Source: Takakia lepidozioides (lineage: Eukaryota; Plantae; Bryophyta). From it: a stretch of DNA of 64,000 bases. This document shows positions 7,996 through 44,650 of this stretch, piece after piece (within the stretch, counting starts at the first letter, position 1; each line of letters starts with the position of its first letter). The DNA lies in contig CM060732.1 in NCBI GenBank assembly GCA_030704615.1, positions 53,506,001-53,570,000 on the forward strand, given 5' to 3'. Under the pieces are notes generated by a model. That model saw only the letters and a list, made by a program, of their open reading frames with translations. It was not told where the DNA came from and made no database searches. The position numbers were made by a program, and so were the translations under genes.

Positions 7996-7999
7996 ATGC

Positions 8000-11868: not shown

Positions 11869-12114
11869 TCAAAGAGGGGTTTTTAGGGTTTACAAAAAGG
11901 TTAAAAAACTTAAAAAGTTGCCCATCACGGTAGCGTGACAGACTTAGAGCGAGCGGGAGGGAGAGAGAGAGAGAGGGTTGGGACTTAGAGAGAGCGAGCG
12001 GAGAGAGGGCAAACATGCATGGGAGGCCCGCAGTTGGATCAACCTTCGCATTTGGAGCAAGCATCCCTAGAAACGCTACGGTATGTGTACGAGGAGGTTT
12101 CGGCTGGGAGCCCG

Positions 12115-13445: not shown

Positions 13446-13489
13446 AGTATGCATTGAACCCATTGGTAGCGGGATATTGGGATATCTCT

Positions 13490-16525: not shown

Positions 16526-18985
16526 CTCTTCCTTCATCATCCACCTGTGTGAGCACTGCTCCAATCCCCAACATACTCCAATCCGTATGTAGCTGGAAAG
16601 ACTGCCTCAGAATAGGTGCAGAAGTCAATCAAGCCTTGAGTTCCTCAAAGGCTTCCTCCTACTCCTCCTTCCATTGCCACTCCTGACCCACCTTGGTCAA
16701 CTTGGTAAGAGCCTTTGCAATGCTACTAAATCCCTTGATAAACCGTCAATAGTAGTTTGTCAATCCCATGAAAGCACGAACTCTGCTCACATCCATAGGG
16801 CATGGAATGCATGCAATAGCCTCCACCTTTGTCTGTTGAACACCCAATCCTCCAGGGTATATCACGTGGCCCAGATACTCAATCTGTTTTTGGAAGAACT
16901 TGTTGGGGTGCAGTTTCAACCCGTGCGCTCTCAAGCGCTCAAACACCACCTGAAGGTGTCTCTCATGCTCCTCAACCATAGCACTAAAGACGGTGATGTC
17001 ATCAATGTAGCACCGGGCGAAGTCTAGCCCCGCGAGAATCCTATCCATGACCCTCTGAAACTCTACAGGAACATTCTTCAACCCAAACGTTAAGAACCAC
17101 CATTGGTACAAACCAGTGTTGGTCTGGTATCGTGTTTTGGAGATATCAGGAGGGTCCTGGTAGTATAAAAATTTAGCTCTAGATGTCCCAAACACGGGTA
17201 TGCAATACTAAAAAAAAACCCAGATTTTGTTACTTGTAGGGTATCAATAATGCTAGCATTTCACTTTTGCAGACTTGGTATCAACAAGGGTATGAAAACC
17301 TTGATACCTGCTGATATCATCTTCGGGTAAAGTATCAAAAATTTACATTTCAGAGAGAAGCACACATTTGTTTAAAAATAAATAAAAAATAAAGCTGAAG
17401 TGCGCACTTCAGCGGCCGAAGTAAACCACCTCTGACGTTGAGTGCACTGAATATTGTAACATGCATATGAAAACTTTTGGCCTTGCATTTATAACCATTT
17501 TCACTGCCGCTGTTTTTCTTTCCAGCCACAAAGACTAATGCTGAATGCGACAGAGCACTAATACAAATAGAAACAAAACCATATGCCGCCATCTCTAGGC
17601 TATGCGCATTGATACCTGAACGGCGATACCAGCAACAGAGTTCCAACGAAAAAAACAAGTAACAACATCAACAACGGTGAGCCGAGACCAGTCGGCTAGG
17701 GTATCGGCCTCCCTGAAATCCTAATCATATCCTACAGGTAGGTTACTCTACGCATTTCCTTCCTATCTGGAACCGACTGGTAGGGGCTTCCATACCCGGG
17801 TGCATAACCGGGTTGATACATGTATTTTTGTACATACCAGACCAACACTGGTACAAATAATCCTTCCCATGTTGGTCAATCCCCCAGAATGCCGTCTTTT
17901 GCTTGTGAGCCTTTTTGATTGGCAAATGGTGGTAACCGGATCGCAAGTCCAATGTGCTAAACACCTTTGCATGCCCAATTACATCAAAGATCTCCTCTGG
18001 AGTTGGCATGACATATCTATCGGACTTAGTCTCACTATTCACAAGACGATAGTCCCCACACATCCTTCTTTCTGTCCAATTGCCATAGATATCCTTCTTA
18101 ACTGGCATCACTGTTGCCAAGGCATACTCCCCACCTGACAGCCACCTTGAGAACATCCTCTGAGCAAGAAACATTCTCAACCTCTTCAAAAACCTTGGCA
18201 ACCTTGGTCTCCTGATCCTCAGTCCATGGCTCTCCCCACTCCTCATACTGCTCCTTGAGAGATCCAATGACTCTCTCTTTGCGCATCTCATCTCATATCT
18301 GCCATGGGTGTTTGCAACCCACGATCCTGTGCTCGCCCCCACTCACTGCCTCAACCGTTCCGGTTGGCAGGGATGATGCACTATCAAATGGGAGTGCAGA
18401 AGTAGCCACCAATGCTTGCAATCTCCGTTGCTCAGCCATGCACAAGCTAATGACCCATATCAAGCAATTTAGCTCCATTGCCTGACCCAACACTTGACGA
18501 CGTGATACCTCTGACAGAGCTAGCACATCGGTAGTGCCCGTGGTAAAACCCATTGCCCGCTCTCGCTCATCTGCATTGGGCTCCACCAATTTTTGTAGCA
18601 CACTGTCCCAAATCAACCCATGACCATTGTCTCGGAAAACATGAGACGAGGGGAAACTCATGAGTGTAGGCAAGGCCACACGTGGCTGCCCCACTCGATT
18701 GACCACTGCTAGAGATAGACGATCATCATGTCGCACCCTCTGTTATTGCCTCCCTTGCGCGCGTGATCCCACCGCTGCTGCATCCAATAGCACCGCCGAT
18801 CCAATCCAAGACCGCACCTGATGCACACTGGCCATAACCTTGGTCCGAGAATCCTCCTTAAGAGGAACATTCTCCAAGATATAGCCTAGAGGTTGCACTT
18901 GTCTCGTCTGCAAGTCCCGCAAGACTCGCAACATCTCCCAAAACAAATGCGATCGCGCATCATGCAAGCCATTCCAATGACCGTG
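16526..18985 (-). mobile_element. Gypsy element A fragment: C5-MTase C-terminal half, RT and RNaseH N-part
   Basis: LFWEM..YILENV..LLDAAAVGSRA; EPNADERERAMGF..RRQVLGQAM; RRMCGDYR, LDLRSGYH, FGLKN, CYIDD; FQLHTDWSMLGIGAVL. Confidence 0.92.
17114..17850. mobile_element. Non-autonomous hAT-type element (MITE) inserted in the RT of element A
   Basis: Perfect 17-bp TIR cagtgttggtctggtat / ataccagaccaacactg; 8-bp TSD gtacaaac (17106-17113) and gtacaaat (17851-17858); no coding capacity. Confidence 0.9.
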
Positions 18986-20428: not shown

Positions 20429-20430
20429 AG

Positions 20431-21095: not shown

Positions 21096-22878
21096 AAGAG
21101 AGTTCGTAGTGGCATATACTAGCCGCTCGAACAATGATGCCGAGGCGAAGTATAGTTCCTATGAAGGGGAGTGTCTAGCTGTGGTATGGGCAGTGACACA
21201 TTTCAAATGCTACCTCTATGGCAATCTCGTCACCCTTGTCACGGATCACCAACCATTGAAATGGTTGATGGAGTCAGACAAGCTTATAGGGAAGCTTGCA
21301 CGGTGGGCACTTCTGCTTCAAGAGTACGACTTTCAAATGGTGCATCGAGCCGGTATTGTCAATCGGGATGCAGTCGTAATCCATGCACGAGTGAGTTGAT
21401 GATACTGGAGCTCAGTGGCATGGTGAGACGGATGAGGAGTTGGTGTCAGGATGGCATGCATCGGCCTTTTTGTGCATTCTAGCAAAGGGAGCTCAAGCTG
21501 GTTCATCCCATACAATTGGTCATGTAGATAGCATGCATGACGATCCAGAGATTAGTGAGGAGTTCGGTGGTGCTAAGGATGTGCATGAAGATGCAACAAT
21601 GTTATATACCTTCGTACCGGAGAGACAACAGCCAGTGTGACTGCTAAGGAGATGGATCGAGTCCTACAACGAGGCGCACAAGGTTCAAGTGGGATGGAAC
21701 TCACATACTCTGGGTATGGGAGGGGATGGACGAGTGAGGATTGTGCCTCATTCAACATAACGAGCGCGATTGATACGCCATGCCCATGAGGAGTTGAGAC
21801 ATTTTGGGGTGCGGCGCACTCATAGTTTGCTGCAAGGGCAGTATTGGTGGCGGGGTATGCACATGGATGTGCAACAATTAGTGGCAAAGTGCATGGTGTG
21901 TGATAGAGTACGGGCTTCTTTCAACGCCCCTACTCCACAATTGCATCTTTTACCCATTATGGGTTTGGGCTATCGTTGGAGTCTTGACTTCGTAGGCCCA
22001 TTGCCATTGAGGATTCGCCATAACAAGTATGTGCTGGTGATGATGGAACACTTCTCCAAATGGATTGAACTGGTGACATTGCCTGACAAGGCAAGTGAGG
22101 GGGCTGCGTATGCATTCTTAGATTGAGTGCTTAGCCATTTTGGTGCTCCAGCCGAAGGTACTCACGGACCAGGGGAGAGAGTTCTTGGGGGAGTTTCAGG
22201 CTTTGTGTGAGCAAGCCTTGATAGATCACCGCACTACTTCTGATGGCTTGGCGGAGAGAGTTGTTTAGACAGTCAAGAGAGGTTTGCGCAAGTACGGTTT
22301 GCAGAAGGGACACCTAGGAGATTGGGACCTTCAGCTGCCTTGGCTAGCTATGGGCTATAGGTTCAGCAAACAAGCTTCACTTGCATCATTCTCACCTTAC
22401 TTTCTTCTCTTCGGCCGAGAGCCGGATTTTTCTGCATCTATTTGTAGGGAGGCTGCAGTAGTTCTCAACCTTGATGATCCGGATGTGTGGATACAAGTAT
22501 GTGCCCAGTGGGCAGAGTTGGTCAAGAGAGTCATGCCTATGGCTTTTGAGAACCTTGCTATTGCCCAACACCGAGACACATTGAAATATGCCACTATACG
22601 TGGAGGGGGATATCGGCCAAGTGTTCGGCGTTTCCACCCTGGGGACTATGTGTATTTGCAGCAGACAACGCCTACGACCTTAGATGTCATAGCAGGACGT
22701 GTGATTCTAAGGGTCAGGGAGGTGTTGCCTTCAGGAGTATTGATTCTGGAGGGTCGAGATGGCATGGTATGGAAAGACCATGTGTGCAATCGTGCGCCAT
22801 GTCACCTTCTACATGTGGATGGGAGGATAGATCCCAATTTTGCAGTGGTACCTGCAGGGTTGCGTTGCATGCTGGTGG
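21096..22878 (+). mobile_element. Gypsy element A: RNaseH C-part and integrase, cut at the start of the PHD finger
   Basis: EFVVAYTSR..YEGECLAVVW..TDHQPL; HEELRHFG..C..C zinc finger; WSLDFVGP, TDQG.EF, GLAER.V (DDE core); ends AGLRCML. Confidence 0.92.
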
Positions 22879-22905
22879 CACTACTACAGAAACCGGTTTT
22901 TCCAA
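22879..22905 (+). mobile_element. CACTA terminal sequence interrupting element A
   Basis: CACTACTACAGAAACCGG begins where homology to element A stops. I saw no matching right end. Confidence 0.6.
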
Positions 22906-24179: not shown

Positions 24180-24975
24180 GGCCCCACTTTCTCCCCTCTA
24201 CTGGACATATATGCACAATAAAGTACTCTGCCACAATCGCCCCCCTAGCTGGTGGATAGGTCCCTCTACCTCCAGATAGCTACAAGATGTAATAACCACA
24301 GCCGTACTAAGTCCTCTATCACTGTCCCTATTGTACTCAAACTCTATAGACCAAGAGGCCGGGTACAAGAGTAGCCCCATCGTTAGTCGCCGTCTTGCAA
24401 TCTGTGAACTTGAGCCAGGATCTCGTGTGTTCAAGGTCTCCTAGTAGCTTGGCATTGCATTTCTTGTTAGCCTTCCATGGTTGTATCCACTCCCACTATC
24501 CAATGCAATGTGGACATAACCAATCCCCATCCGGAACCATCTCAAGAGGTGGAGTCAAGCATCCCATATGCCAACCTCTAGAGCATCGATCATACACCAG
24601 CATGGTGGCTGCCCCTTTAGCAGACCCACACAACATGCACCTCAAACCTGCAGATACCGCTGCCAGGTTTGGGTCAATCCTGCCATCGACATTCGGAAGG
24701 TGACATGGCGCACAATTACGCACATGGTCCTTCCAAGTTATGCCATCCCGACCCTCCGAGACCAAGACGCCTGAGGGCAAGACCTCTCGAACCCTCAAAA
24801 TAACACGTCCTGCAGTCACATCCAAGGTCGTAGGAGCAGTCTGCTGCAGATAGACATAGTCACCAGGGTTGAATCTCCGAACCCCATGACGATAGCCCCC
24901 ACCACGTATGGTAGCATACCTCAACGTATCACGGTGTTGTGCAATGCCAAGGTTCTCGAAACCCATGGGCATGAC
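24180..24975 (-). mobile_element. 3' end of element A pol: integrase C-terminus, PHD finger and a possible PPT
   Basis: Same sequence as 22540-22870, continuing CMLCGSAKGAATMLVYDRCSRGWHMGCLTPPLEMVPDGDWLCPHC*; purine tract aggggagaaagtggggc at ~24181-24197. Confidence 0.88.
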
Positions 24976-25249
24976 TTAAAGCTAGAATATTTCGAAAAAA
25001 TCCTAATCTAAATTTACTAACAAGTGTTCAAACCAGCCCAATGGTAATATATTTTATTACCATTATCAAATGTTTGTCTACGTGGTGTGGTTTTCTAGAC
25101 AAGTCTGGTAGCAGGATTTTAGCCTCTGACCTAGAATGACTTAAAGTGCAAAAGGTTAAAAAGTCAAAAAGTTGCTAATAAGGTTGCCCATTAGGATAAT
25201 CGTGAACACAGAGGAGGGCTGGGACTTGGCGTTTTTTTTTGTCTCCGGC

Positions 25250-26529: not shown

Positions 26530-26767
26530 TGAACCGTCTTATCTTCACGAGAGCGGCAGTCGCGCAGCTCATCTCTCTCGAGTTGAGCCTGCGCGACCGA
26601 CTCCTTCATGCGTTTAGATCTTAGTGTGCTTATGATGGGTGTAGTTGTGTGGGGTGGAGTCCCCATAGCTTGGGGTGCCCCTGGCTCGACTTCTATTTTA
26701 AAGAGTGATAGCGATGGATTTCATATTTCTTGTGTTGAGAGTGTGTGTCCTTTAGCTTTTCTTATCA
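26530..26767 (+). repeat. Dispersed ~240-bp repeat with an inverted copy at 44408-44650
   Basis: tgaaccgtcttatcttcacgagagcggcag...ttagcttttcttatca is near-identical to the reverse complement of 44408-44650. Confidence 0.88.
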
Positions 26768-26920
26768 TTGTGGCTGACTACTTTATTGTGCCTATATGTG
26801 TGGTGTGGTTTGGACAACGATGTAGTTGTGTAGCGATACGTATGCGCACGACAGTGAAATATACTCAATGAAACTACGTGTGATCGAGTTGTTCCACTCG
26901 ATTAGTTTTTCCTTGCAATC

Positions 26921-30010: not shown

Positions 30011-30199
30011 TTGGAGACCTTGGAGGCCCCTAATTGGCGGGCGCCTAGGGCCTTTTGGTGGAGTGTTTGGAGTCCAAGTTTGTGAACTTTTTGAACCTCG
30101 GTGGGTCTATGTTATGGGTTGATTGAGGGCAGATTTCAGAAGTTCATGGCAAATAATTTGAGGGCTCTTGAGAGTTATTTGAGAGGTTCTTTAAGGATA

Positions 30200-30638
30200 G
30201 TCTTATCTATTGCTCGAGCAAGAGTGAGTGTGAAGATAGGGGGAGTAATGGGATGAGAGCATTCTGGGCTTAGAGATTGTTTTAGCTTCCCTTCTCTATA
30301 GTCTTCCATCATTCTTGTAGGCCAAAGCTTTTCCGTAAGCGGAGGCAAAGCTAGTTTGGATAGAGACTTGGCCATCTTGCAGGTTTATTGGAGCCGCAAG
30401 GAGATCGATTGATTTAAGGTGTGGGAGGTGTTGTTGTTTGAGTTTCGTTTGTTTGGATCCTCCTCCCACACATGCATGCTTGATTGTGCGCCATGCTAGT
30501 TTGGTTTGGGCGCTTACTTTTATAGGTGGTTGTGACGGAAATATTGTGGCCGGCCAACCCTAGAGCGTGCTGTCGGTGGTGAGGCTGGGGTGATGACCAG
30601 CAGACCATCATTGTTTCACTTATGGTGAGGCTGTTTGG
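30200..30638 (+). mobile_element. 5' leader of element A (copy Y)
   Basis: Homologous to the reverse complement of ~41010-41420, clearest at 30415-30635. Confidence 0.75.
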
Positions 30639-31670
30639 ACCTGCAATAGGGATGAATGTAGATCAAGTGTCTGAGGACCCTGAGGCCAGCAATGAGCAAG
30701 GTGGCGCCAAAGATATACATGAGGATTCAGTTGTGTTGGACTACCTCTGCACTGGAGACACTGCAGCCACTGTGACTGCCAAGGAGAGGGATCGGATCCT
30801 ACAACGAGCCAAGAGGTTCAAGTGGGAGGGGACACACCTGCTCCGAGTGTGGGAGGATGGTCGAGTGAGGATTGTGCCTCACCCAACACAGCGGGCACGG
30901 TTAGTGCGGCATGCCCATGAGGAGTTGGGGCATTTTGGGGTGCGACGCACTCATAGTCTACTGCAGGGGCAGTATTGGTGGCGTGGTATGCACACAGATG
31001 TGCAACAATTTGTGGCTAGGTGCATGGTGTGTGACAGGGTGCGTGCTTCATTCAACGCCCCTACTCCACAATTGCACCCTCTTCCGATCATGGGATTGGG
31101 CTACTGGTGGAGTCTTGACTTCGCAGGGCCATTGCCACTGACCATGCGCCACAACAAGTACGTGTTGGTGATGGTGGAGCACTTCTCCAAATGGATTGAG
31201 TTGGTTCCATTGCCTAATAAGGCTAGTGAGGGAGCTGCGTATGCATTCTTGGATTGTGTGCTTAGCCGATTCGGTGCTCCAGCTGAGGTACTCACGGACC
31301 AAGGGAGAGAGTTCTTGGGGGAGTTTCAGGCTTTGTGTAACAAGGCCTTGATAGACCACTGCACCACTTCTCGGGATCATCCTGAGGCCGATGGCTTGGC
31401 AGAGAGAGTTGTTCAGACAGTAAAGAGGGGTTTGCGCAAGTATGGCTTGCAGAAGGGACACCTAGGAGATTGGGACCTTCAGTTACCCTGGTTAGCCATG
31501 GGCTACAGGTTCAGCAAGCAAGCATCACTTGCCTCCTTCTCACCATACTTTCTTCTTTTTGGCCGAGAGCCGGATTTGCCTACATCCATTCGTAGGAGAA
31601 GCTGCTACAGTTCTTAATCTTGACGATCCAGACGTGTGGGCACGTGCATGTGAGCAGCGTGCAGAGTTGT
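30639..31670 (+). mobile_element. Element A integrase (HHCC and DDE)
   Basis: ORF 30622-31617: HEELGHFG, CMVC, SLDFAGP, TDQGREF, HPEADGLAER, SPYFLLFG. Confidence 0.95.
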
Positions 31671-31679
31671 TCAATCTCA

Positions 31680-32429: not shown

Positions 32430-32897
32430 ACCACATGCACGGTCAAAACCAGGTTTTATGGAAGTCCATTTGGCATATCCTCAAGAGATTGTTGCTCTGC
32501 ATGAGTTCATCTCGTGGAAAGAACGTCAAGTAGCAAGACACATCATGGTATTTCTCCAAGATCCCTTTGATCCAATCTGGGCTCGGCTCCCTATCGCCTT
32601 CTCCCTTCACTTGTCTTACGTAAAGCAAAAACTGGGGCTCGTGTGACTCCTCCACGGCCCACTCCCTTGCTGACAGAAGGTTATTTGCCCTCCCACGGGG
32701 TTGGGCATTTTCGATACTCGTAAAACTTCGCCACCATTCCCACACGGTAACGTGACTACTCTCTTGCGGCCATCTATGACCGCTCCGGATTTGCTCAAAA
32801 AGGTCACCCCCAAAATGAGATCCACTCCATCGATCTCGCAAATGGTGAAGTTCTCACGTCCCTCCCAACTCCCCAGTTGAAGAGGAACATCGAACAA
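32430..32897 (-). mobile_element. Element B protease C-half and linker
   Basis: LFDVPLQLGSWEGRENFTICEIDGVDLILG..., WIKGILEKYHDV. Confidence 0.75.
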
Positions 32898-35800
32898 CTC
32901 AGGATATCGCTGTGTGAGCAAGGCGATGTGGCGCATAGAAATACACCGAGCTATCTCATCCTTCTCTACATACAAGTACTTACGTACTTTAATCCCTCCT
33001 TGCAATACTCTTGCAAGCCCAGTGCTTATGCCTCCAAACAGGTCTAGTAAAAAAATCCCTGAGTCAGGTGGTTGCCAGATAATGGGCACTGTGTCCAAAG
33101 GAGCTAACTCAGGAGGTCCAGGTGATGTCACTAAACTCCCTTCACTCATCAATGAAAAGGCCTTCTGCCATGCTTGGTGCACACACTCGCCTGCTACTCA
33201 ATGCAAATTCCGATCCGTACCCCACATTGGAATATGCACAGGCACATGAGGAAGCACATCAGCCTTATATGCCAATTGTTTGTCCTCAACAGGTAATGGC
33301 CTATCATTGCATGGCTATTGCCCTCCAAGAGCTCACCACCCCAAGCCACCACCCTTGAAAATGCAGCCAATGTAGGCATCATGTTCCTATGATCCACTGC
33401 TACATTCCCAATAAACCGCACTGGGAGTAGTGCATGTCGGCCATCTCCTGACTGCCATTCCGGCCTGTAGGATGTCGTTACCTCCCAAAAGTCCAGAATG
33501 AATCCCATGGGGTATAACACCCCCCAACCAAAAGCACATCATAAGATATCGCGTCCGTAACAATGGCTTTAACTCTCATGACTGAGCCGTCCGTAGGATG
33601 ATCCGGCTGCAATCGAATGAAGAGCTCATGGCGTGTAATCCCTCGTACCTTCTCTGAACCGCCCAAAGATGTTTGAATTTGGAAATGGCAAGGCTCCAAA
33701 TCCGCCTCTGTGAGGCCCAAGCCTGCAATTGCTGCTCTTTCCCAACATCAATGGCTGTGCTCCCGATTCCAACAAGACCAGCAATGGCTTGTACCTCCTC
33801 CCGGCTGGGCCACCCAACTAAAACACACCATCCTCATTGTCCATCAGGACTACCCCAGGAGTCACCATACTGCGCTCAATGGCTGGCCTAGCTGGCAACT
33901 CCTGCAACCTTGCAGCTGCCGCTTGCCATGGCGCAGTTGTGGCTGTCTTCATCCTTGAATCTAGGGCATCCATGCATGGCAACTTACCCACTATCCCTGC
34001 AGATAGTGTTGATGCATCACCACTCTCACAGAGTGCAGCTGCCAGTCTAAACACTGCAGCTAGCTGCATCACCGGCATTGCAATTGTCGTGGCAGAAAAC
34101 AATGGAGCTTGGCAAATTGTTGTAGCCGCCCCCAACAATGTACTGGATGCACCTTGCTTTGCTGCACCACCCACTAGCATTTCCCGAGCTACACCAATTC
34201 TCCCCAATGGCGCTCCTGGCTCTACCTCTGATACACTTGGGCGAGCGGGTGTCGTCAATGACGTAGTTGACACTGTCTCAGCCAATGTGAAAAACTGTGG
34301 AAGCCTTGTATGTCGACTTGCTTCCCCTCTTTGTGGATCAAAATCCACATCCGTTCCTCTTGGCTCAGGAGCACGAGTTGCTGCTCGAGTAACAGCAGCT
34401 GCAGAGTCCACATGCAATGGTCCTACAAGTGCGGCTCCATACATGAAGCCCATGTCAATCTGGTCTTTCTTAGGCATAGGAGGTTGTGCAGGTGAGGCTT
34501 AAACCTCAGGCCTTGGAACTGGCGCAACAAGAGTAGTGGCCATGGAAGTCCAAGGCAATAATAAACATGAAATGAGTACACTCACCTGATACAATGGCAG
34601 GGCAAGCCTATCCACCATGTCTTGGTCATGACCTTGACCTTGACTCTGTGCTCCTTGGTTTTGGTTACGACCTCCACCCCGACCTCTGCCTCCTCTACCT
34701 CTCTAGACTACATTGCCTCGTCCTCGGTCACCATTGTTCCCTTGGAACTAGCCTGGCCGTAGCTCAGGATGTAGGTCATAACAATGGGCCTCTTCATGCC
34801 CATACTTGCCACAATGCCCACACTGTAGTTGTGTAGGCTGTGCTTGTGCTGGCCCTTTGCCTCTCTCTAGGCAATCTCTCTTAACATGGGGTCCTCCACA
34901 ATCCCAACATGTCACACCCGACTGTTGTTGGCTTGAGAATGAAGGAAGTGACCTCTGCAACTAAGATCCTCTCTACCTTCCCTGGGCTTTGCCTGAGCCC
35001 CCTTGTTGCCTTGAGCATATTGGGGTAGTGGTTGTTGTTGGCTAGGAGCCTCACTTTGTTGTTTCTCCTTACCAAACCCCACCATGACCACTCGATTCTC
35101 CACCATATTGAGCTCTTTCCGCTCTGCCAGCAAAAACACGTTTGCTAAGCTGGCTTGAGCCACTTGTAAAAGAGTTGCATCCCGTACCCTTCTCCTCAGT
35201 TCCTTGTCCAATATCCCATACCAGAATTGGACTGCTTGAGCTTCCGTAACCCCTTGGGTTATATTTATCAATCGCCTCATGCGCGTGTAAGCCTCCCTCA
35301 AACTCTCAGTAGGCTTGCGATGGAATTCTTGCAAGCTCCGCAATTTATCCGTCCTCATCCCCTGGTAGTTTCTCCTCAACTCCTCGAAGAACTCCACAAC
35401 TGGGTTAAAGGCAGGCACGGGTGCTGGTGCTGCAGCAGGAGCTTGAGTGGATTTCCCAGCTCCATCTTTACTTGTCCCACTACTAGTACTTGCAGTTGGG
35501 GATGTTGGTGTAGCTGCTGGTGTCGCCGCTGCCCTTATGCCTCTGTGATGGAGATGTAGTCAGGTGACCAATATTGTCACCACTCCTCAATCTCCACCTT
35601 ATTTCCCCGCCTAAACTCATGGTAGTCATCCATAGGCAGCCCCTCAAGGTGCTGAAACAGCCCCTTCCACGCCATAAAAGGCGTAAACAGTTGTGGATTG
35701 CGCATCTGCTGTAAATCACACCAACTATCAAACTCATGTATGAAATCATCAAGCTCGATGGTGCCCACAGCTCCAGAGTACCGACGTGGCCCCTTGGTAG

Positions 35801-36170
35801 CTCCATACATTTCCTCCATCGTATCCCACAACAATGGAAATGGCTTGCACCCTTGGAGAGAATCCTCCTAACTCTGAGTTTGAACTTTCCTCAAAAGACA
35901 CTGAAGGTGAAGATGGCCTAAACCGCATACCTCGTCTTGTATGCCCACTAGTATCGTTGGTGCTCGAACTGGCACTCTCCTCAGCAACTGGTGGCACCTC
36001 CGTGATGAAAACTCACACTCAAACCGGTTATCAACTTGTCTCTAATCCCCCTTTTCACAAGGTAACCGGGTAGAGAATTTATTGTGGCTTATGGTTTGGA
36101 ATACTATGTTCCTAACCTGAACCTGCACTTGCACCTGCATCCACCGCAGGCACTCCTATGGTCTGCTGGT
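32898..36170 (-). mobile_element. Element A copy Y: leader, gag, zinc knuckles, protease and C5-MTase N-terminus
   Basis: Gag ELDDFIHEFDSWCDLQ, ESLREAYTRM; CWDCGGPHVKRDC and CGHCGKYGHEEAHC; LLESGAQ..YDVLL protease-like; LLDLFGGISTG, YLYVEKDE. Confidence 0.9.
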
Positions 36171-39100
36171 TTGGCCTTCCGCTGCCAAGATACACATAAA
36201 TGCAGATGCATGCCATCCGGGCACCATCTCCTCGTCCGTCTCACCATGCCACCGAGCTCCAATGTCATCCTGCTGGTTCGTGCATGGATTGCGACTCAAC
36301 CCATCTGCATTGCGATTGACCAAACCCGGTCGATGCACTACCTGAAAGTCATACTCTTGAAGGATGAGTGCTCACCGTGCAAGCTTCCCCATAAGCTTGT
36401 CTGACTCCATCAACCACTTGAGTGGTTGGTGATCCGTGATAAGGGTGAAGAGATTGACGTATAGATAGCACCTGAAGTGTGCTACGGCCCACACTGCAGC
36501 TAAGCATTCTCCCTCATATGAGCTATACTTAGACTCAGCAGCATAGTTCGAGCGGCTAGCGTAAGCCACTATGAACTCTCTTCCCTCATCATCCACCTGT
36601 GTGAGCACCGCTCCAAGCCCCAGCATGCTCCAATCTGTATGCAGCTGAAAAGGACGCCCCCTAATAGGTCGTCTCAAGATGGGCGCCGAGGTCAACCTCG
36701 CCTTGAGCTCTTGAAAAGCTTGTTCTTGCTCATCTTCCCACTGCCAGTCCTGGTCCACCTTGGTCAGCTTGGTTAGAGCCTTTGCAATGGCACTAAATCC
36801 CTTAACAAACCGTCTGTAATAGTTTGCTAACCCCATGAAAACTCAAACTCGGCTCACATCCGTGGGGCATGGAACCTGTGCAATGGACTCTACCTTAGTC
36901 TGCTGTACCCCCAATCCTCCAGGATATATCATGTGACCCAGATACTCAATCTGGTTGTGGAAAATCTTGCACTTTCCCGTATGTAACTTCAATCCGTGCG
37001 TCCTCAAGCGCTCAAATACCCCCTGAAGGTGTCTCTCATGCTCCTCTACCGTAGCACTAAAGATGATGATTTCATCTATGTAGCACCGAGCAAACTCCAC
37101 CCCTGCTAGAATCCTGTCCACGACCCTTTGAAACTCAGCAGGAGCGTTTTTAAGCCCAAATGGTAAGAACCGCCACTGGTACAGGCAATCCTTCCTGTGC
37201 TCATTGATCCCCCATAATGCCGTCTTTTGCTTATCCGCCTCCTTGATCGGCAACTGGTGATATCCGGATCGTAAATCCAACGTGCTAAAGACCTTGGAAT
37301 GCCCAATGGCATCAAAGATCTCCTCTGGTGTCGGCATGGCATACTATCGGACTTGGTCTGACGATTTACAGGCCGGTAATCACCGCACATACGTCTCTCC
37401 GTCCAATTGCCATAGACATCTTTCTTGGCTGGCATCACTGTGGCTGAAGCATACTCTCCACCAGAGAGCTCCACCAAACCTGCCTCCCACAGATCCTGAG
37501 TTCTCATCTGAATCAAGGACCGCTCCATGTCACTGTATCTATAGGGTCTCCGAAAGATTGGCGTGTCAGTAGCCAATTCAATGCGAATCTCTTGACCCTT
37601 CAGTGCTCCCAAGTCCTTCAAACTGAAGGCAAAGCAATTCCTGTAAGCCCTCAGGAACCGCCGCATACATCGTCTCTCTCCTCCGGTGACAATGGGTCCA
37701 ATGTCAGGCTCCCAATTGTCCTCCGTAACTGCAACCTTAAGTCCAGTGGGCTTAGAGGTAGAGGACGCATCCCGTGGTTGCTATGCTGCAACCTCTTGAG
37801 CAGTACTCCCTTCCTGCTCAGTCAATGACAAGGCCTCATCCTGCCCCATCATCTCATCATTGAGAACCTCCTCAACCCGAGAAGAATCCCCAACCTCATC
37901 CATCACAGCTGTCTTGGCTGCCAACTCCCTCTGGACCTCGAACACCTCCCACGTGTGCCATGGATGTCTACACCCCGTGGTCCTCACCGGCTCGCCCCCA
38001 CTCGCTGTCTGTACCGTCTCGGTAGGCAGAGAGACCGTCAAGGGAAGTGCACTCCGCACTCTACGTTGCTCAGCCATAGCCAAGCTGATAATCCACGTCA
38101 AGCAATTGAGATCCATTGCTTGCCCCAACACCTGATGACGTGATGCCTCAGAAAGAGAAGGCACCGCCGTGGTCCCAGTGGAAAACCCCATTGCCCACTC
38201 TCGCTCGTCGGCATTAGGCTCCACTAACTGTTACAACTGAGCATCCCACAGGAGGCCAGGTCCACCATCCCGAAAAGCATGGGATCCTGGGAAGTTGAGC
38301 AGTGTAGGTAATGCTGCTCGTGGTTGACCCACCCTGATGACCACTGCCAAAGGCGAACGGTCATCGTGTCTCACACGTTGAGACTGCCTCCCTGTGTCCA
38401 AAATGTTGTCCACTATGAGGTGTGTTGGCCGCTGCACCCCATCAAATGCACACTTGAGCAGTGCGGGTGGCATCAAGTTAGTCCACCATAGCCGTGGACG
38501 ATGAGCCCGTGATCCCACTGCAGCTGCATCCAACAGCACTGCTGACCCAAGCCACGACCGGACTTGATGCACACTGGCCATCACCCTGGCCCGAGAATCG
38601 CCCATCAGTGGTACATTCTCCAAGATGTATGCTGACGACACAGCTTGATGAAGCTGCAAGTGGCGCAAAATCCGCACCATCTCCCAAAACAGACCCGTCC
38701 TCGAGTCTCGCAATCCATTGCCATGCCCGGCTGATGAATGCCCTTGGCAGGGCCAACCTGCCACTACCAGATCAATGGAGCCAACTTGCTCCAAATCCGG
38801 CGCCCCCAGCAACGAAATGTCTGCTGGCAAGGCTTGTTGGTATCCACGAACTGCAGACACTGGCAACAAAGCAGGGTACTGCTGTACCAACTGAGCAACA
38901 TGACGCAGTGAGACGCGTCATGCAGTCTCATCCCTCTCCACATACAGGTAACGCCTTACCCGCACACCTGCCTGTAGCACAGCAGCCAATCCGGTGCTGA
39001 TCCCGCCAAACAAGTCCAGAAGGCAAATGCCTTCATCCGGATATTGCCACACAATAGGTGTGGTATCCAATGGTGACAACTGAGGTGGTCCTAGTGGCTG

Positions 39101-41230
39101 CCCCCAATAACACACCGGCCGCACTAGCCTTGGTAGCAGGTGTCAGTGCTGCACGTGTAGCTCTCCCCAATGGCATAGTAACCTCCGCCTCGGTAACAGT
39201 CGGGCGCAAACTAGGTGCCATGGATGGCGTTGACACTGTCTCCGCCAAGGTAAATGACTGAGGCAGCCTCGCCTGACGGCTTGCCTCCCCACGTTGTGGA
39301 CCCAACTCCACCTCTGCACCTCGTGGCTCAGGAACTCGTGCTGCTCCTCGAGTCACGGCTGCAGCAGACTCCACCTGCTGTAGTGGTAGTGCTGCTCCGC
39401 ACATGAATCCCATGCCTCCCATATCTCCTCCCTCAGGAACAGGAGGTGGACCATCCCGCCTGGGAGCCGGTATCGCCTGAGCTGTAGCCATGGTAGCGAG
39501 CCTCTGCTCTAGCTGCTGAAGCCGGTTGGTCATGCCTTGGTCAACACCTTGACCTCCGCGTCCTTGGCCATGTTGAGCTTGCCCTTGGCCTGCACCTCGT
39601 GCCCGACCACCTCATCCTCTCTGGGCTGGTCCACCTCGCCCCCGGCCACCATTGTTCCCTTGGAACTGGCCTGGGCGCAACTCATGATGCAAGTCATAAT
39701 ACTGGGCATCTCCATGCCCATACTTGCCACAATGCCCACACTGCAACTGTGCAGGCTGTGTTTGTGCCGGCCTTTTGCCACTCTCTGGGCAATCACTTGG
39801 GTTGGGAAACCTTGCCCCCCTGACCACGCTGTTGGGCAATCCCTTGTGCCTGTGGGCTGGCAGCTGCGCCTCGTGCAGGCATGTCCTTGCCAAACCCAAT
39901 GATAACAACTCGCTCCTCCACCATGTTGAGCTCAATCCGCTCAGCCAGCAGAAACACATCTGCTAATGTGGGTTGGGCTGCTTGTAACAGGGTTGCATCC
40001 CGCACCCTTCTCCTGAGCTCCTTGTCCAAAATTCCATACCAGAACTGGATTGCCTGAGCTTCAGTAACCCCTTGGGTCACACTTATCAAGCGCCTCATAC
40101 GAGTGTAGGCCTTTCGCAAGCTCTCACTGGGTTTGCGCTGGAAGTCTTGCAAACTTCGCAGCTTCTCTGTCCGTACACCTTGGTAGTTCCTCCGCAACTC
40201 CTGGAAGAACTCCACCACCGGGTTGAATCTAGGCACATGTGTTGTAGTCGTGGCAGGAGGAGTAGTAGCACCTTTTGAACTGGTACCACCTGCAGAAGTA
40301 CCGGCACTACTTGTTCCACTACTAGTACTGGTAGTGGGAGATATTGGTACTGATGCAGCTACTGATCGCGTCGTGCCTCAAGTAATGGAGACGTAGTCAG
40401 GTGACCAATACATCCTCCACTCCTCAATCTCTGCTTCATGTCCTCGCCTGAACTCGTGGTAATCGTCCATAGGCGGGCCTTCCAAATGCTGGAACAGTCC
40501 CTTCCACGCCATGAATGGGGTGAATAGCTGTGGATTGCACATCTGCTGCAAATCACACCAGCTGTCGAACTCCTGGATAAAGTCATCCAACTCGATTGTG
40601 CCCACAGCTCCAGAGTACCTACAAGGCCCCTTGGTAGCTCCATACATCTTCTCCATGTCGTCCCACAACAATGGCGAATGAAACTGCACACCTGTTGATG
40701 AAACCTCCGAGTCTGTGTTTGACTCTGCACTAGTTGAGGGTGGAGGTGAAGGTGGTCTGAAACAAACACCTCGTCTGGTGAACCCACTCTCACTGCTACT
40801 GCCTGTAGCCGTACTCCCCTCAGAACCCCTGGGTAACTCCGTGATGACACTCACAATGTAAACCTCCCCCACATGACACTATAAGGCTCTATTACTAATT
40901 CTAATAGTGACACGGGTAGGCACCTGTTGCAGTTTAAGGGTCATATCCCAGTGGCTCAGGGCACCTGCACTTGCATCCACCGCAAGAACTCCTATGGTTG
41001 GCTGGTCATCAACCCAGTCTCACCATAGAAGAAACACTGGTGGTCTTGCTGGTCATCACTCCAGCCTCACCACCGACAACATACTCTAGGATTGACCGGT
41101 GATCAAATCTGGCCTAATCCCTATGAAAGCAAGCGCCCACACAAAACCAACATGGCGCACAGTCAAGCATGCAGGTGTTGGGGGGGATCCAAACACAAGA
41201 AATCAAAACATCAACACCCCCACACCAAAA
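36171..41230 (-). mobile_element. Element A copy X: leader, gag, (protease deleted), C5-MTase, RT and RNaseH
   Basis: Collinear frameshifted ORFs 40378-40872, 39793-40236, 39033-39533, 38918-39124, 38231-38890, 37781-38224, 37106-37666, 36843-37337 and 36372-36836. RT motifs LDLRSGYHQ, LPFGLKNAP, YIDE; RNaseH TDWS, EGECLA, TDHQPL. Confidence 0.93.
38080..39030 (-). pseudogene. DNA (cytosine-5)-methyltransferase domain, DNMT3-like, inside Gypsy pol
   Basis: Motif I LLDLFGGISTG; II YVERD; III ADI; IV DLVVAGWPCQGHS; V RTGLFWE; VI YILENV; VII LDAAAV; VIII AHRPRLWWTNL; IX EREWAMGF; X RHQVLGQAM. One frameshift near 38900 and one stop at 38231. Confidence 0.93.
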
Positions 41231-41399
41231 TCCATCTGTAGTGCTGACCTACATAATATCCCAGCCCAAAACCCCGGACTGACTGGCCTCCACCAAGAGA
41301 GGCTTTGGCAACTACAAGTACAAAGTAATGAAAATAGTAAAGAGGTGGAGGGGAAGAATAGAAGCCCGACCAAGCAAGATCTAATCCTGATCTATGCTA

Positions 41400-42137
41400 T
41401 CAACAGACTTCTCTCAAAGTGCCTCGCTCTGCATGATGGTAAGGTGTAGGAGGTATATCTATGTCCAGAAACCTGCCACTAACCTTGTCCCAAGCTACAG
41501 TAGCTCGCTCTAACCAACCCTCCTCCTCTTTCTGCCAGGTAGAGACAAAGCAATACTCCCCTATCTCCCGCTCACTGAACACTAAAGAAAACAAAGGTAG
41601 GGTCTGATAGTCTCTCAACTCGAAAGCTTTGAGACGGTTGCGGGTGTCCTCATTGCGAATGACTGCATCTCCCTCAAGCAAAACAAACTTGTCATTGCTA
41701 ATGAACCCCCGCTCATGGTTGCCTTGTGCAGAGTGTGTCCGACTGCAACCATGTCTGATTGCACAAACTTGTGTAGCTCCTACTCCTCTACTCCAGTACA
41801 CCACGGCCTTGTGGCTGAACACCTTGGTCCCCGGGGCTGTCTTTGGCTGTGTTCCAAGCCTAGCTTTCACCCGCTTTGGTATTTCACTTACAGCTGCAGA
41901 ACTGCTGGCTCCAACAGAGTTCTGACTGTCCAAAGCAACATTGAGGCCCTCAACGCCAACTACAACAGTTTGTTGTCTACTGCTAATGCATGACTCCCAG
42001 TATGTAAACAACTCGTCCAACTGTTCTCCACTCACATCAGTCTGAGTTCCTTGGGAAACATAAATCTTGTCCCCTTGGGTGCACAGGCTAAGAGAAGAGA
42101 CCTGCCCTTCAATTACGTCCTCATTTCCCCTAGCCAT
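41400..42137 (-). CDS. Unassigned 245-aa ORF upstream of element A copy X
   Basis: Uninterrupted ORF, same strand as gag; no recognised domain. Confidence 0.3.
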   Translation of the reverse strand: MARGNEDVIEGQVSSLSLCTQGDKIYVSQGTQTDVSGEQLDELFTYWESCISSRQQTVVVGVEGLNVALDSQNSVGASSSAAVSEIPKRVKARLGTQPKTAPGTKVFSHKAVVYWSRGVGATQVCAIRHGCSRTHSAQGNHERGFISNDKFVLLEGDAVIRNEDTRNRLKAFELRDYQTLPLFSLVFSEREIGEYCFVSTWQKEEEGWLERATVAWDKVSGRFLDIDIPPTPYHHAERGTLREVC

Positions 42138-42589
42138 ACAAGGAGTACATCCCCAGATTTATCTCTCATGTAGACCAGAACAGGTTCTAGAAATAGGATT
42201 GTGGATCTTTTATGGCACATTCACACTCTAAAAATTCCATAGATTTTTAGCAGAGTCCCAAAAACAAAACAAAAAAAAACCAGATCTAGATAGGTAGATA
42301 TCCCCTTTCTGCAGCTATCCCCCCAAAAACTGGGTCAAACAGAGTCCATTTGACAAAGATATGACCAATTTGGCTCTAAATCATTTAAACTAGATCAAAA
42401 GGTTTTTTTTTTTTTTTTAACACCAAAACGTTCTCGCCATTACAACCTGTTCCCAGGTTATCTACGGGTTCCCGAGGCCGTTCCCACATATATACCCCTC
42501 CCCGCTCCCCTGCGTTTGTACTTACTGCTTCTACTCGCCTGTATTACTGCTCCCCCGCTCCTCTGTGTTCGTGCTCCCCTACTGCTTCC

Positions 42590-42970
42590 GCCCCCCCGTA
42601 AAAGTTGCCTTGCTTGATTGCATCATCATTTGCATCACCCAAGGCAGCCTGAGACAGGTATTTTGCAGCGAGTTGGACACGCTTCACATTCTCCTGCTCT
42701 TGCACCAGCATGTGTCCATACTGCATCAACTTTGCAAGTGTCATGGCCGGCTTCTGAAACCTCGGGGGGCCTTCCTTGGAATTTACCAGCTTTTTGCCTA
42801 TGTTCTCCACTCCTACTAAAGTGGGCCCTAACTGCATCGTCGTACACCCGAGCCCTCACTGCCCCAAAGAAGTCAATGGACTGCCCAGGAAATGCATCCA
42901 CCAAGACTGTTATCTCATCAGGATGTACATTGTCTTCTCTAAAAAATTGCCCATGCAAAACCCTGCTTCC
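42590..42970 (-). pseudogene. RCA: Rubisco activase C-terminal fragment
   Basis: [29 protein letters not shown]; [50 protein letters not shown]; frameshifted. Confidence 0.93.
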
Positions 42971-43024
42971 ACTCTGGGGTCGTACTGTGATTCACAACCT
43001 TGGTTTGTCGAGGAGGACCACTTC

Positions 43025-44210
43025 CAAGTGCAGAGCTTACAGAAGGAAGCACTAAAGAGTGCATCAAATAGTTGGCCCAATGCAGTGGCGGATGCAGGGG
43101 GCATAGTGGAGCTTTCCGCCCTCATTCTGCAAGTGGATCCTCAGCCTCCACATGCCCTTTTGGAAGCAGCAACACTGGTGCTTTCCAATGTGCTCCGTTT
43201 CAGCTCACAGTATTATCTCAAAGTACCAATTGCGGTGCTTGTGAAGTTGTTGCGCCCAACCTGTGAGGCAACAGTGGTGGTGGCACTGAGTGCACTGCTA
43301 GTTCTGGAGAGGGATGATGCATCTAGTGCTGAAGGCATGGCTGAGACAGGTGCAGTGGAGGCACTGTTGGAGCTACTACGGTGCCATCAGTGCGAGGAAA
43401 TTGCGGCACGCCTTGTGGAGGCCTTGTTCAACAACGTCAAAATTCGTGACATGAAGGTGGCCAAACTTGCCATTGCACCTTTGTCACAGTACTTGCTCGA
43501 CCCACAGACACGAATGCAGCCAGCAAGGCTGTTGGCAGCATTGGCATTACGGGATCTGTTTCAGCATCAGGGCCTGTCTCGCAGTAGTGATGCAGTGTCA
43601 GCCTGCCGTGCTTTGGTGAGCTTGTTGGAGGATCAACCAAAATGAAGATGGTGGCCGTGTGCGCGCTGCAGAACTTGGTGTGCAACAGCCGGTCCAACAA
43701 GCGTGCAGTGGCTGAGGCTGGTGGTATTCAGGTGGTACAAGAGCTCCTGGCCTCAAGCAATTCGGAAACTGCAGGGCAAGCTGCTGCATTGATCAAGCTT
43801 GTCTTTTCAAACCATACCATTCAAGAGTATGCCTCAAGTGAAATTATTCGGGCTCTGGCAGCTGCCCTTGAGAAGGATTTGTGGGCAACAGCATCAGTGA
43901 ATGAGGATGTTGTGAAGGCCATGACAGTAATGTTTGGAAACTTTGGCCGGTTGCGCTGCACGGATGCTGCCACACATAGTATCACGCAGCTGGTGGGTGC
44001 ACTAAAGGCTGGCAATGAAGGAGCACAGAAAGCAGCACTTGAGGCTTTGTTCCTACTACGTCAAGCCTGGTCCTCCAGTCCTGCCGAGGTGGGAAAAGCA
44101 CAAACCATGGCAGCGGCAGAAGCCATTCCTATGCTGCAACTGTTGATGAGGACAGGCCCCCCACGCTTTCAGGACAAGGCAGACAGCCTGCTGCAGTGCT
44201 TGCCAGGAAG
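43025..44210 (+). pseudogene. CSI1: CELLULOSE SYNTHASE INTERACTIVE (ARM-repeat) fragment
   Basis: [18 protein letters not shown]; LLRCHQCEE; [14 protein letters not shown]; [26 protein letters not shown]; [18 protein letters not shown]. Frameshift at ~43640; the C2 domain is missing. Confidence 0.88.
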
Positions 44211-44407
44211 ACGAGAATATTGTTGGCTTTGAACTGCTGCAGCGACACTTCGAGTGGTTCCCGCCTTCCTGTTATGCTCCACTAGGCACACATAGCCAGT
44301 CTACCTGCAGGCTCTCGTGACCAAGCTATATTATAATAGTGCTTAAAAACAAAAACGTCACATCTAGCTTAGCACTAGAAAACTAGATACAGCTCATCTC
44401 TCTCGAG

Positions 44408-44650
44408 TGATAAGAAAAGCTAAAGGACACACACTCTCAACACAAGAAATATGAAATCCATCGCTATCACTCTTTAAAATAGAAGTCGAGCCAGGTGCAC
44501 CCCAAGCTATGGGGACTCCACCCCACAACAACCTACACTCCCATCATAAGCACACTCAGATCTAAATGCATGAAGGAGCTCGGTCGCGCAGGCTCAACTC
44601 GAGAGAGATGAGCTGCGCGACTGCCGCTCTCGTGAAGATAAGACGGTTCA
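44408..44650 (-). repeat. Inverted copy of the 26530-26767 repeat
   Basis: Direct sequence match. Confidence 0.88.

Follow-up and report, generated by a model that had tools for sequence, protein, structure and literature searches.

The closest described counterpart of the element analysed here is KnitGypsy-Dnmt3 of Klebsormidium nitens, which in the account of PMC5890265 has Gypsy domains, a Dnmt3-like domain that is intronless, non-permuted and subject to purifying selection, and DIRS-like A-coding-B-A-B repeats, and in which the DNMT is stated to lie in one ORF with the reverse transcriptase (RT) and RNase H. That account also reports that the Klebsormidium Dnmt3 domain gave no methylation in yeast, a result called inconclusive by its authors (human DNMT3B failed too), and that the Klebsormidium methylome is plant-like in spite of such elements; host-level effects and self-restraint are raised there as well. 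SymbioDIRS-Dnmt3 of Symbiodinium is of the Dnmt3 type and methylates CG in yeast; it and SymbioLINE-Dnmt are likewise retrotransposon-borne C5 methyltransferases, but of the tyrosine recombinase and LINE classes, respectively (PMC5890265). The EpiLTRs of Cymbomonas and Euglena also encode a C5 methyltransferase, but this enzyme is described as sister to DNMT4 and carries DAM and a chromodomain (bioRxiv 10.64898/2026.05.21.726589). What transposon-borne cytosine methyltransferases do has been an unanswered question since 2018, in part owing to algal hosts that are difficult to work with.

The locus studied here lies in Takakia lepidozioides, in a stretch of 64,000 nucleotides (contig CM060732.1, positions 53,506,001 to 53,570,000) that we refer to as the window. 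A retrotransposon-borne Dnmt3 of the Klebsormidium kind is already known; what differs here is a conserved in-frame stop between the methyltransferase (MTase) and the RT. In contrast to KnitGypsy-Dnmt3, the host is a land plant in which the family is very abundant and, unlike the Symbiodinium elements and the EpiLTRs, the Takakia-type family encodes a DDE integrase that bears a PHD finger. Our preferred reading, to which we assign a probability of roughly 0.55, is that of a high-copy Ty3/Gypsy family with a Gag-level MTase placed before a leaky stop, the enzyme likely methylating the element's own new cDNA.

The main copy, at positions 36171-41230 on the minus strand, is dead, with at least 5 premature stops and 2 frameshifts, a lost protease and both ends cut (Table 1). 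Its gag capsid region was 61% identical to residues 1-276 of P0003, the protein of Marchantia gene Mp4g09160, and matched PF03732 weakly (E 0.004, under its cut-off), while the following gag part, which contains the motif CGHCGKYGH, was 41% identical to residues 313-490. Residues 491-859 of P0003 were unmatched between 39213 and 39091 of the main copy, and family contigs had loose ends at 39096 (22 contigs) and 39146 (28 contigs). The RT opens in the frame of the MTase, with a frameshift at 37343-37344 that is private to this copy, and the RT/RNase H part contains premature stops at 36845 and 36374 before it is cut at 36171, ahead of the integrase. At the other end, 33 family contigs diverge from the window behind 41230. 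The segment 41015-41236 was also considered as an LTR or as a linker between RNase H and integrase, and both assignments were rejected, since it is leader sequence.

Table 1. Positions of the family's features in the window, counted from its first nucleotide
Feature	Position	Strand	Remarks
5' leader remnant, main copy	40879..41236	-	cut at about 41230; 79% match to 30407-30633
gag, capsid region	39796..40656	-	premature stop 40380; frameshift and short deletion at about 39795
gag zinc-knuckle-like and glycine/arginine-rich part with linker	39213..39794	-	premature stop 39614
Internal deletion junction, protease lost	39096..39146	-	loose family-contig ends
DNMT3-like C5-MTase domain, motifs I-X in canonical order	38072..39037	-	premature stops 38920, 38233
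In-frame stop TAG CAA CCA, readthrough-type context	37775..37783	-	closes the gag-protease-MTase ORF
RT and RNase H	36171..37774	-	PF00078 E 4e-28, PF17917 E 3e-32
Second, diverged copy: leader, gag, protease, first ~50 residues of MTase	32892..36170	-	cut at 32892
Third copy, first part: second half of MTase (18983-18281), RT (18142-17846 and 17111-16527)	16527..18983	-	
RNase H, integrase, PHD finger	21096..22889	+	P0045, P0053 matches
3' end of another copy: PHD finger, start of repeat B	24205..24976	-	
Purine-tract-like GCTAGGGGGG	24250-24241	-	within the 3' end 24205..24976
Solo A-B terminal repeat unit	26530..26853	+	terminates in CACGACA as in the relatives' B repeat
Deleted copy: leader piece fused to integrase	30407..31674	+	PF17921, PF00665
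5' repeat A, then 18 bases complementary to a site inside A	44390..44650	-	same strand as main copy

The MTase domain is complete and reads in a single frame from 39037 to 38072, with the motifs LDLFGG (39019-39002), YVERD (38944-38930), AGWPCQG (38761-38741), YILENVP (38629-38609), HRPRLWWTNL (38503-38474), EWAMGF (38200-38183) and LGQAMD (38128-38111), and it matched PF00145 with 49 bits (E 7.7e-13; curated cut-off 22). An earlier note on this DNA, made from the sequence alone, had recognised a full C5-MTase with motifs I-X in canonical order, which is borne out by these data, and had proposed a frameshift correction, which is unnecessary since the domain contains no frameshift and just the two stops at 38920 and 38233. 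The motif ERAMGF that it gave for this copy belongs to the copy at 18.5 kb. The note had also placed the domain between gag/protease and RT; gag does precede it and RT follows, but the protease is absent from this copy.

In a profile comparison against PDB sequences, the best 29 of the 57 sequences were DNMT3A/B/C, with a score of 90.7 bits for DNMT3A compared with 40 bits for M.HhaI and 37.9 bits for DRM2. The C-terminal part of DRM2 aligned to profile positions 1-128 only, as expected for a permuted enzyme. The predicted fold superposed on DNMT3A with a TM-score of 0.73/0.82 (E 3e-18), and among the matches listed in the fold search all 34 of 34 were DNMT3 entries. By sequence and predicted fold, DNMT3 is closest, ahead of DRM, DNMT2 and bacterial MTases, and we classify the domain as DNMT3-like and non-permuted, as the note had proposed in setting it apart from DRM. 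The catalytic domain of human DNMT3A/3B was the best PDB match, yet the identity to DNMT3A was about 21%, and the Takakia element, which was also set beside plant DNMT3 (PMC6453930), has neither a PWWP nor an ADD domain. Among 173 domains, the motif IV Cys was conserved in 149, EN(V/T/A) of motif VI in 157 and RxR of motif VIII in 158. The exact Pro-Cys dipeptide was found in just 78 of the 173, and Glu precedes the Cys in several algal-type rows of alignment A3; the clade of the window has GWPCQG and ENV. The dN/dS values ranged from 0.07 to 0.22 for the 8 of 15 pairs with computable dS, and the MTase has evolved under purifying selection across relatives, some of which have intact versions of the domain that carries two stops in the main copy.

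A homologue search with the MTase yielded 65 longer homologues at E<=1e-5, the named ones being from Marchantia, Calypogeia and Sphagnum, and close relatives in Marchantia polymorpha had an MTase domain that was 73% identical. The MTases of the relatives were linked to gag, protease or RT; the domain was intronless, in frame and at the corresponding position in dozens of relatives, which belong to several genera, and the long loci as well as the intact element L029 had the order gag-PR-MT-RT-RH-INT-PHD with a DDE integrase. The assignment to Ty3/Gypsy made in the earlier note thus holds for L029 and the long loci, and piecewise for the window. The MTase is a family trait and not a secondary insertion, in agreement with the note, which had described it as stable within the family: relatives, including intact ones, have kept it, and 37701-39300 contained one inverted 10-mer and no inverted repeat of 11 bases or more. 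With the PF00145 match, none of the three outcomes that the note had named as counting against its view came up. The note had drawn on the same position of the domain in 2 other pieces of the window, each of which shows half of the order and neither the whole. In Takakia, the family was represented by 50,190 contigs in one run. The summed contig depth (run X1, DNA of this organism), which is not a copy number, was level across the MTase (0.79-1.11 million) and RT/RNase H (0.82-1.10 million).

Many algal relatives have the MTase after RNase H and ahead of the integrase, or encode it together with the RT in one ORF, and single-ORF forms were found in a sister group (P0075, and P0060 from Closterium). 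The MTase and RT trees displayed the same broad groups; the RT tree has an unreliable root, and the MTase tree was built from element domains only, with a random subset of the 88 RH-MT-INT proteins and without most of the 42 unclassified proteins. The note had likened the element to that of Klebsormidium, and the Gypsy domains, the Dnmt3-like domain and the repeat order all agree; none of the hits was labelled Klebsormidium, most of them carrying no name, and the likeness to KnitGypsy-Dnmt3 is drawn from its published description. A search of IMG/VR gave no relative, and no paper on this element in land plants was found in the literature covered, which was mostly outside subscription papers.

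The MTase had been placed within pol in the earlier note. Instead, an in-frame TAG (37783-37781), followed by CAA-CCA down to 37775, separates it from the RT, so that the MTase closes ORF1. In 39 of 42 junctions there was an in-frame stop at most 45 codons ahead of the RT, and in 36 of the 42 it was followed by CAR-YY, compared with 7 of 331 decay stops in the comparison set; 3 junctions had no stop and 3 had a stop in a different context. The count excludes 22 of 63 loci that lacked an MTase end with an RT start behind it. One subfamily contributes 33 of the 42 junctions, some being the same insertion. The stop context was present in all 6 subfamily representatives, whose flanks were 22% to 67% alike, and synonymous sites were near saturation between most subfamilies. 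Strict CAR-YYA was seen in 5 of the 6 subfamilies (that of the window and 4 others), whereas the sixth, a large subfamily, had CAA-CCC, often after TAA (11 loci). The second codon after the stop encodes Pro, Leu or Ser, so the constraint acts on the bases. The intact L029 has 1369 open codons, TAG-CAG-TTA and a further 1047 open codons in the same frame, with the earliest Met past the stop at codon 116, within the conserved RT region.

Type I readthrough in plant viruses has the consensus UAG-CAR-YYA (PMC3542737), and the feature shared with tobamoviruses is the stop with its six-base context; no common hairpin after the stop was apparent in six single-sequence folds. Because the context fits this consensus, production of the enzyme in Gag-like amounts is likely, and we regard readthrough of the junction stop at a low rate as very probable. 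Tj1 is also reported to have an in-frame stop between gag and pol, which is needed for transposition (PMC4600332). That stop comes right after Gag in an element described with ordinary LTRs and no MTase, whereas protease and MTase precede the stop here. No description of the Takakia-type stop was found in the literature, mostly outside subscription papers.

In the preferred reading, ORF1 would comprise Gag, protease and MTase and end at the conserved stop, and occasional readthrough would add RT, RNase H, integrase and the PHD finger. The MTase would match Gag in the amounts made and packaged and would probably methylate new cDNA before integration, so that new copies would arrive methylated like host DNA, the likely gain being camouflage or self-restraint. 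It is probable that the protease releases the MTase and that particles take it up, and the intact copies are likely to be catalytically active. We slightly favour cDNA as the main substrate, with methylation probably at CG by analogy with DNMT3 and SymbioDIRS-Dnmt3. Several observations argue against the preferred reading. Most junctions come from the one subfamily with CAA-CCC and an ATG close behind, 6 of the 42 junctions lack the stop or its context, and four gene models (see below) have MTase and RT in one protein. The nearest tested case, the Klebsormidium domain, produced no methylation in yeast as reported in PMC5890265; algal relatives with the MTase elsewhere indicate that Gag-level supply is not needed everywhere; and the main copy is CpG-depleted (observed/expected 0.51, compared with 0.85 and 0.88 for 2 other Ty3 pieces) no more strongly than a DNA transposon (0.45) or ARM fragment (0.38) nearby.

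The same facts can be read in other ways. An active MTase might work chiefly in the nucleus in trans, on integrated copies or host DNA, and thereby curb the spread of the family or add to host de novo methylation. The placement before the stop would supply far more MTase than a few cDNAs require, the family is very abundant, and such host-level effects and self-restraint were raised in PMC5890265; yet translation within the Gag polyprotein points to particles, the MTase has no targeting domain (the PHD finger sits on the integrase) and the Klebsormidium methylome is described there as plant-like, which leaves this unlikely. We are more doubtful still that the MTase is retained for a DNA-binding or structural role, in which it binds cDNA or protects or joins ends while methylating weakly or incidentally. 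The negative yeast result (PMC5890265), the scarcity of the exact Pro-Cys, the Glu before the Cys in algal-type rows and the Gag-level amounts would suit such a role, but the active-site Cys, the Glu and both Arg are kept in about 86% to 91% of the 173 domains, the window's clade retains GWPCQG and ENV, and dN/dS is low.

It is improbable that the stop truly ends ORF1 and that Pol is made by splicing, by reinitiation or from a second promoter. In four gene models from NCBI (P0006, P0008, P0012, P0040) a stretch of the linker is skipped, which puts MTase and RT into one protein and leaves 122-187 residues from motif X to the CGDYR motif of the RT compared with 246 codons in the window, and in the large subfamily an ATG lies two codons past the stop. 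However, the 4 skips are unequal in length, as expected from ab initio predictions or from copies that have decayed, the ATG is missing from the other 5 subfamily representatives, and continuation in the same frame and conservation of CAR-YY would be purposeless under splicing. That the MTase is a passenger, be it inserted secondarily, captured as a piece of a host gene or joined on in an assembly chimera, could be suspected from the broken elements around it and from the deletion junctions 5' of it in the main copy. This was refuted by the intact L029 and is hardly credible given the in-frame, intronless domain that recurs at one position in dozens of relatives belonging to several genera, the concordant broad groups of the 2 trees, the purifying selection and the lack of terminal inverted repeats.

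More tentatively, and with rather less than even confidence, we suggest that liverworts and mosses host a widespread and in places very abundant group of retrotransposons whose active DNMT3-type enzyme is produced at the level of the coat protein via a virus-type leaky stop, within an old green-plant lineage in which the enzyme has moved among 3 polyprotein positions. If so, the element would itself set the methylation of its new copies and could contribute to de novo methylation in bryophytes. The stop alters the expected dose, since the published model has the enzyme fused to the RT and the supply here would be at Gag level. With close relatives in the genetic model plant Marchantia polymorpha and with intact elements, self-methylation of cDNA and its purpose become testable. 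Work on bryophyte methylation may also need to take into account the DNMT3-like domains that such elements bear; in some cases these have been annotated as normal host genes.

The repeat order of the relatives was A-coding-B-A-B (complete in L036 and L041, partial in L013, L019 and L057) or A-coding-B, in place of two ordinary identical LTRs. They have TG...CA ends and a short target-site duplication, which was an exact 4-base duplication at 4 of the 5 loci with both ends and had one mismatch at the fifth; the ends of the window copy are lost. The primer site in the window is an exact 18-base complement, compared with at most 9 bases in 2000 shuffles. Past the 5' repeat, 15 bases were complementary in L029 and 16 in L032 and L036, beginning 26 bases after TATA in all 3, and 6 of 12 5' ends in the large subfamily matched at 13-16 of 16. 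The sites are complementary to the predicted 5' end of the element's own RNA, as in Tf1-type self-priming and as described for Tj1/Tf1 of fission yeasts (PMC4600332).

The window as a whole is a nest of broken elements, in which A, B and solo A-B repeats occur in separate pieces. The second copy matched residues 1-935 of P0003 in order and was 75% to 85% identical in DNA sequence to the main copy. The MTase half of the third copy, with the motif ERAMGF, matched PF00145 weakly (E 0.034), and upstream it is fused to gag/protease from a different Ty3 element. The match to P0006 breaks at residue 1022 (16527) and restarts at 21097, and the piece at 21096..22889 likely continues the third copy after a local inversion. 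A 252-codon ORF at 41400-42158 had no Pfam or Atlas match. The solo unit matched 44650-44408 at 97%, and its B part matched 4 loci at 76% to 80%; its target duplication is not clear. The segments 26530-26767 and 44408-44650 were also considered as terminal inverted repeats of a DNA transposon, which was rejected, as they are two A repeats of the MTase family. The repeat A within 44390..44650, which may or may not belong to the main copy, is followed by a candidate primer site of the self-priming type.

The element copy at 36171 to approximately 41230 on the minus strand is a dead element. It was truncated at both positions, contained 6 premature stops (40380, 39614, 38920, 38233, 36845, and 36374; 5 of them outside the poorly conserved gag linker) and frameshifts at approximately 39795 and at 37343, and had its protease (PR) region deleted, with residues 491 to 859 of the Marchantia homolog P0003 lacking a match. 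Contigs from X1, a DNA run from the same organism and possibly the source of the window itself, departed from the window at 36172, 39096, 39146, and 41230, and 99% of the X1 depth at position 38233 had a different letter, for which reason the lesions were considered private to this copy. With stops translated as X, the methyltransferase (MTase, MT) occupied a single frame at 39037-38072, with motifs I, II, IV, VI, VIII, IX, and X in canonical order, confirming the complete C5-MTase claimed in the earlier note. The profile check suggested there gave a match to PF00145 of 49 bits (E 7.7e-13, cut-off 22), and Pfam identified RVT_1 and then RT_RNaseH downstream.

DNMT3A ranked first in the PDB search with the single MTase sequence and with a 21-sequence profile (90.7 bits, followed by DNMT3B/3C), while the same profile gave lower scores for 4onj, which we take to be a plant DRM (51.7 bits), M.HhaI (40 bits), and DRM2 (38 bits). 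The DRM chains aligned to the first 129 profile positions only, via their C-terminal part, as expected since DRM is permuted. The AlphaFold model (pLDDT 92.5, pTM 0.91) matched DNMT3A (E 3e-18, TM 0.73/0.82), and all 34 matches listed in the fold search were DNMT3 entries; the enzyme is thus DNMT3-like rather than a permuted DRM by sequence, profile, and predicted fold, as had been proposed. Across 173 near-complete homologous domains, the active-site residues were conserved at motif IV (Cys, 149), motif VI (157), and motif VIII (158), with the exact Pro-Cys dipeptide in 78, and dS could be computed for 8 of 15 pairs, in which dN/dS was 0.07 to 0.22.

The MTase frame of the window continued into the reverse transcriptase (RT) across a single TAG (37783-37781) followed by CAA CCA. 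We examined 42 junctions with an MTase end and then an RT start, from the window and 41 of 63 metagenome loci of the family; these are not independent, as one subfamily accounts for 33 of them and certain loci represent the same insertion. An in-frame stop was located within 45 codons before RT in 39 of the 42, and CAR-YY directly followed the stop in 36, compared with 7 of 331 control stops that interrupt the MTase and RT-RNase H domains themselves. All 6 subfamily representatives retained TAG-CAR-YY (CAACCA and CAATCA twice each, CAACCC, CAGTTA), and their flanks of 54 to 60 bases on each side were 22% to 67% alike. The exceptions were 3 loci without a stop, L059/L060 with another context, and L044, in which TAG TAG CCA is a single C-to-T change away from the consensus. 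In the intact locus L029, 1369 open codons encoding protease and MTase (ORF1) were followed by TAG CAG TTA and 1047 more codons in the same frame encoding RT, RNase H (RH), integrase (INT), and PHD by Pfam (ORF2); L038 and L008 also had an open frame past the stop. The earlier note had placed the MTase within pol, between gag/protease and RT; the order stands, but the in-frame stop splits the MTase from RT. Tobamoviruses have UAG-CAR-YYA as their type I readthrough consensus, which functions after UAA too (PMC3542737), and the fission-yeast element Tj1 needs a stop between gag and pol (PMC4600332), much as the MTase family has one before RT.

Every sufficiently long locus among the 63 had the order gag-PR-MT-RT-RH-INT-PHD except L055 (RT-RH-MT-INT-PHD), and pieces of the domain were found in 2 other window copies, in agreement with the stable family trait proposed earlier. 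Among the 173 proteins, the MTase followed RNase H or preceded integrase in 88; another 28 terminated shortly past PR-MT, 15 were predicted as single proteins with MT ahead of RT, and 42 were left unclassed. A search for longer proteins gave 65 matches at E<=1e-5; the best, with 66% to 74% identity, included Marchantia polymorpha and Calypogeia fissa, with Sphagnum, Closterium, and Haematococcus ranking lower, and further hosts were Riccia, M. paleacea, and Scenedesmus. The MTase tree placed the window in a group with Marchantia, Calypogeia, and the large subfamily resembling Sphagnum (FastTree support 1.0), nested in a clade of mainly PR-MT-stop proteins (0.98). The RT tree recovered the same main groups, with poorly supported nodes close to the window. 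These placements point to a bryophyte as the probable host. A total of 50,190 X1 contigs matched the stretch, and their summed depth, which is not a copy number, was even over MTase and RT/RNase H, which fits a very abundant family carrying the domain throughout.

It was also noted that a large sister group of algal type has the same MTase located after RNase H and ahead of integrase (L055:350-4501; proteins P0045, P0049, P0058, P0088), with named matches in Haematococcus and Scenedesmus and Glu-Cys replacing Pro-Cys in several. The family domain of P0218, with 50% identity, sits on a 2.4 kb contig of a bacterial MAG and has the NCBI label DNA cytosine methyltransferase; it is probably plant DNA assigned to a bacterial bin.

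KnitGypsy-Dnmt3 of Klebsormidium nitens has Gypsy domains, an intronless non-permuted Dnmt3, and a DIRS-like repeat order (de Mendoza et al. 2018, PMC5890265), all of which the MTase family shares when compared by description. In the Klebsormidium element, however, the DNMT shares an ORF with RT and RNase H, unlike here. Marchantia and Sphagnum were not named in the searchable supplements of that paper, which later papers cite for "streptophytes", and we found no account of an MTase element in land plants or of the conserved stop in the open-access literature. The element is of a published kind and the main copy is dead, but its range in land plants, its intact relatives, and the placement of the enzyme on the Gag side make an open question testable.

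With the architecture itself established, our overall reading, to which we assign a probability of about 0.55, is a Gag-level MTase, rare readthrough, and methylation of the element's own cDNA. ORF1 would yield Gag-protease-MTase, to which occasional readthrough would append RT, RNase H, and integrase-PHD. The stop context makes readthrough highly probable. Splicing or reinitiation could instead produce Pol, since 4 gene models fuse MTase and RT with part of the linker skipped and the junction of the large subfamily reads CAA-CCC-ATG, but the first Met of ORF2 in L029 lies 116 codons in, which disfavors reinitiation, and we regard this route as improbable.

Because ORF1 encodes the MTase and readthrough would be only occasional, the enzyme would be present in the particle at Gag-like amounts; such packaging is likely, as is catalytic activity, given the retained motifs. 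New cDNA is the somewhat favored substrate, most likely methylated prior to integration and probably at CG; these 4 assessments overlap. Action in trans on chromatin seems unlikely, and a non-catalytic role slightly more so, even though yeast tests of the Klebsormidium domain showed no methylation, a result described by its authors as inconclusive (PMC5890265). That the MTase is a passenger or artefact is hardly credible. CpG depletion across the window did not set the family apart.

The relatives lacked ordinary LTRs and were instead bounded by terminal repeats A and B, arranged as A-coding-B-A-B (L036, L041) or A-coding-B (L017, L026). Repeat A begins with TGTCA and B terminates in ACA (mostly GACA), with an inner B-A junction of GACA-NN-TGTC in L013, L019, L036, L029, and L038, and a G-rich tract upstream of B, present in the window at 24250-24241. 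Of 5 loci with both ends, 4 had an exact 4-base target duplication and the fifth had one mismatch. The sequence past the 5' A was complementary to a site within A over 18 bases in the window (44407-44390), 15 in L029, and 16 in L032 and L036, compared with 9 and 11 in shuffled controls, and in these 3 loci a TATA was located 26 bases before the site. This 5' layout is that of the self-priming Tf1/Tj1 elements. The true LTR of the cDNA would be B-A, closure would give a one- or two-repeat circle, and opening by integrase at the inner palindrome would generate both repeat forms observed. Five insertions stopped after a single B (L003, L010, L017, L026/L031, L043), 2 of which retained both ends plus a target duplication; these insertions could derive from one-repeat circles or B-B recombination.

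Other features of the window, with the basis of each assignment
Feature	Position	Strand	Basis
Second MTase-element copy, gag-PR-MT start	36170-32892		P0003 protein matching
Third MTase-element copy, MT-RT	18983-16527		protein matching
Inverted pair of ~720-base LTR-like repeats	15803-16527 and 20429-21093		94-98% in ungapped parts
gag of other Ty3 element owning the ~720-base repeats	19492-20256		PF19259
ARM-repeat fragment, intronless, two frames	42758-44232	+	PF00514 in second frame; Atlas ARM/HEAT 0.93
Decayed PPR-like coding-repeat arrays, unit ~125-129 bases	7985-14480 and 25630-26530		PPR by eye
CACTA-type transposase + DUF4216	3900-5438 and 6570-7292	+	PF02992 E 4e-79
Tandem array, unit ~67 bases	29190-30040		
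RT of unrelated Ty3-like element	60863-61800	+	28% identity to MTase-family RT

A 252-codon open frame immediately upstream of the main copy (41400-42158, minus strand) had no Pfam or Atlas match. The ARM-repeat fragment, which presumably resembles CELLULOSE SYNTHASE INTERACTIVE 1, has a family A repeat on one side and the main copy on the other, and may represent host sequence captured by transduction. The DNA between the ~720-base repeats appears inverted, so that the third MTase-element copy is interrupted at RNase H, and a solo A-B repeat of the family was located at the edge of one PPR-like array.
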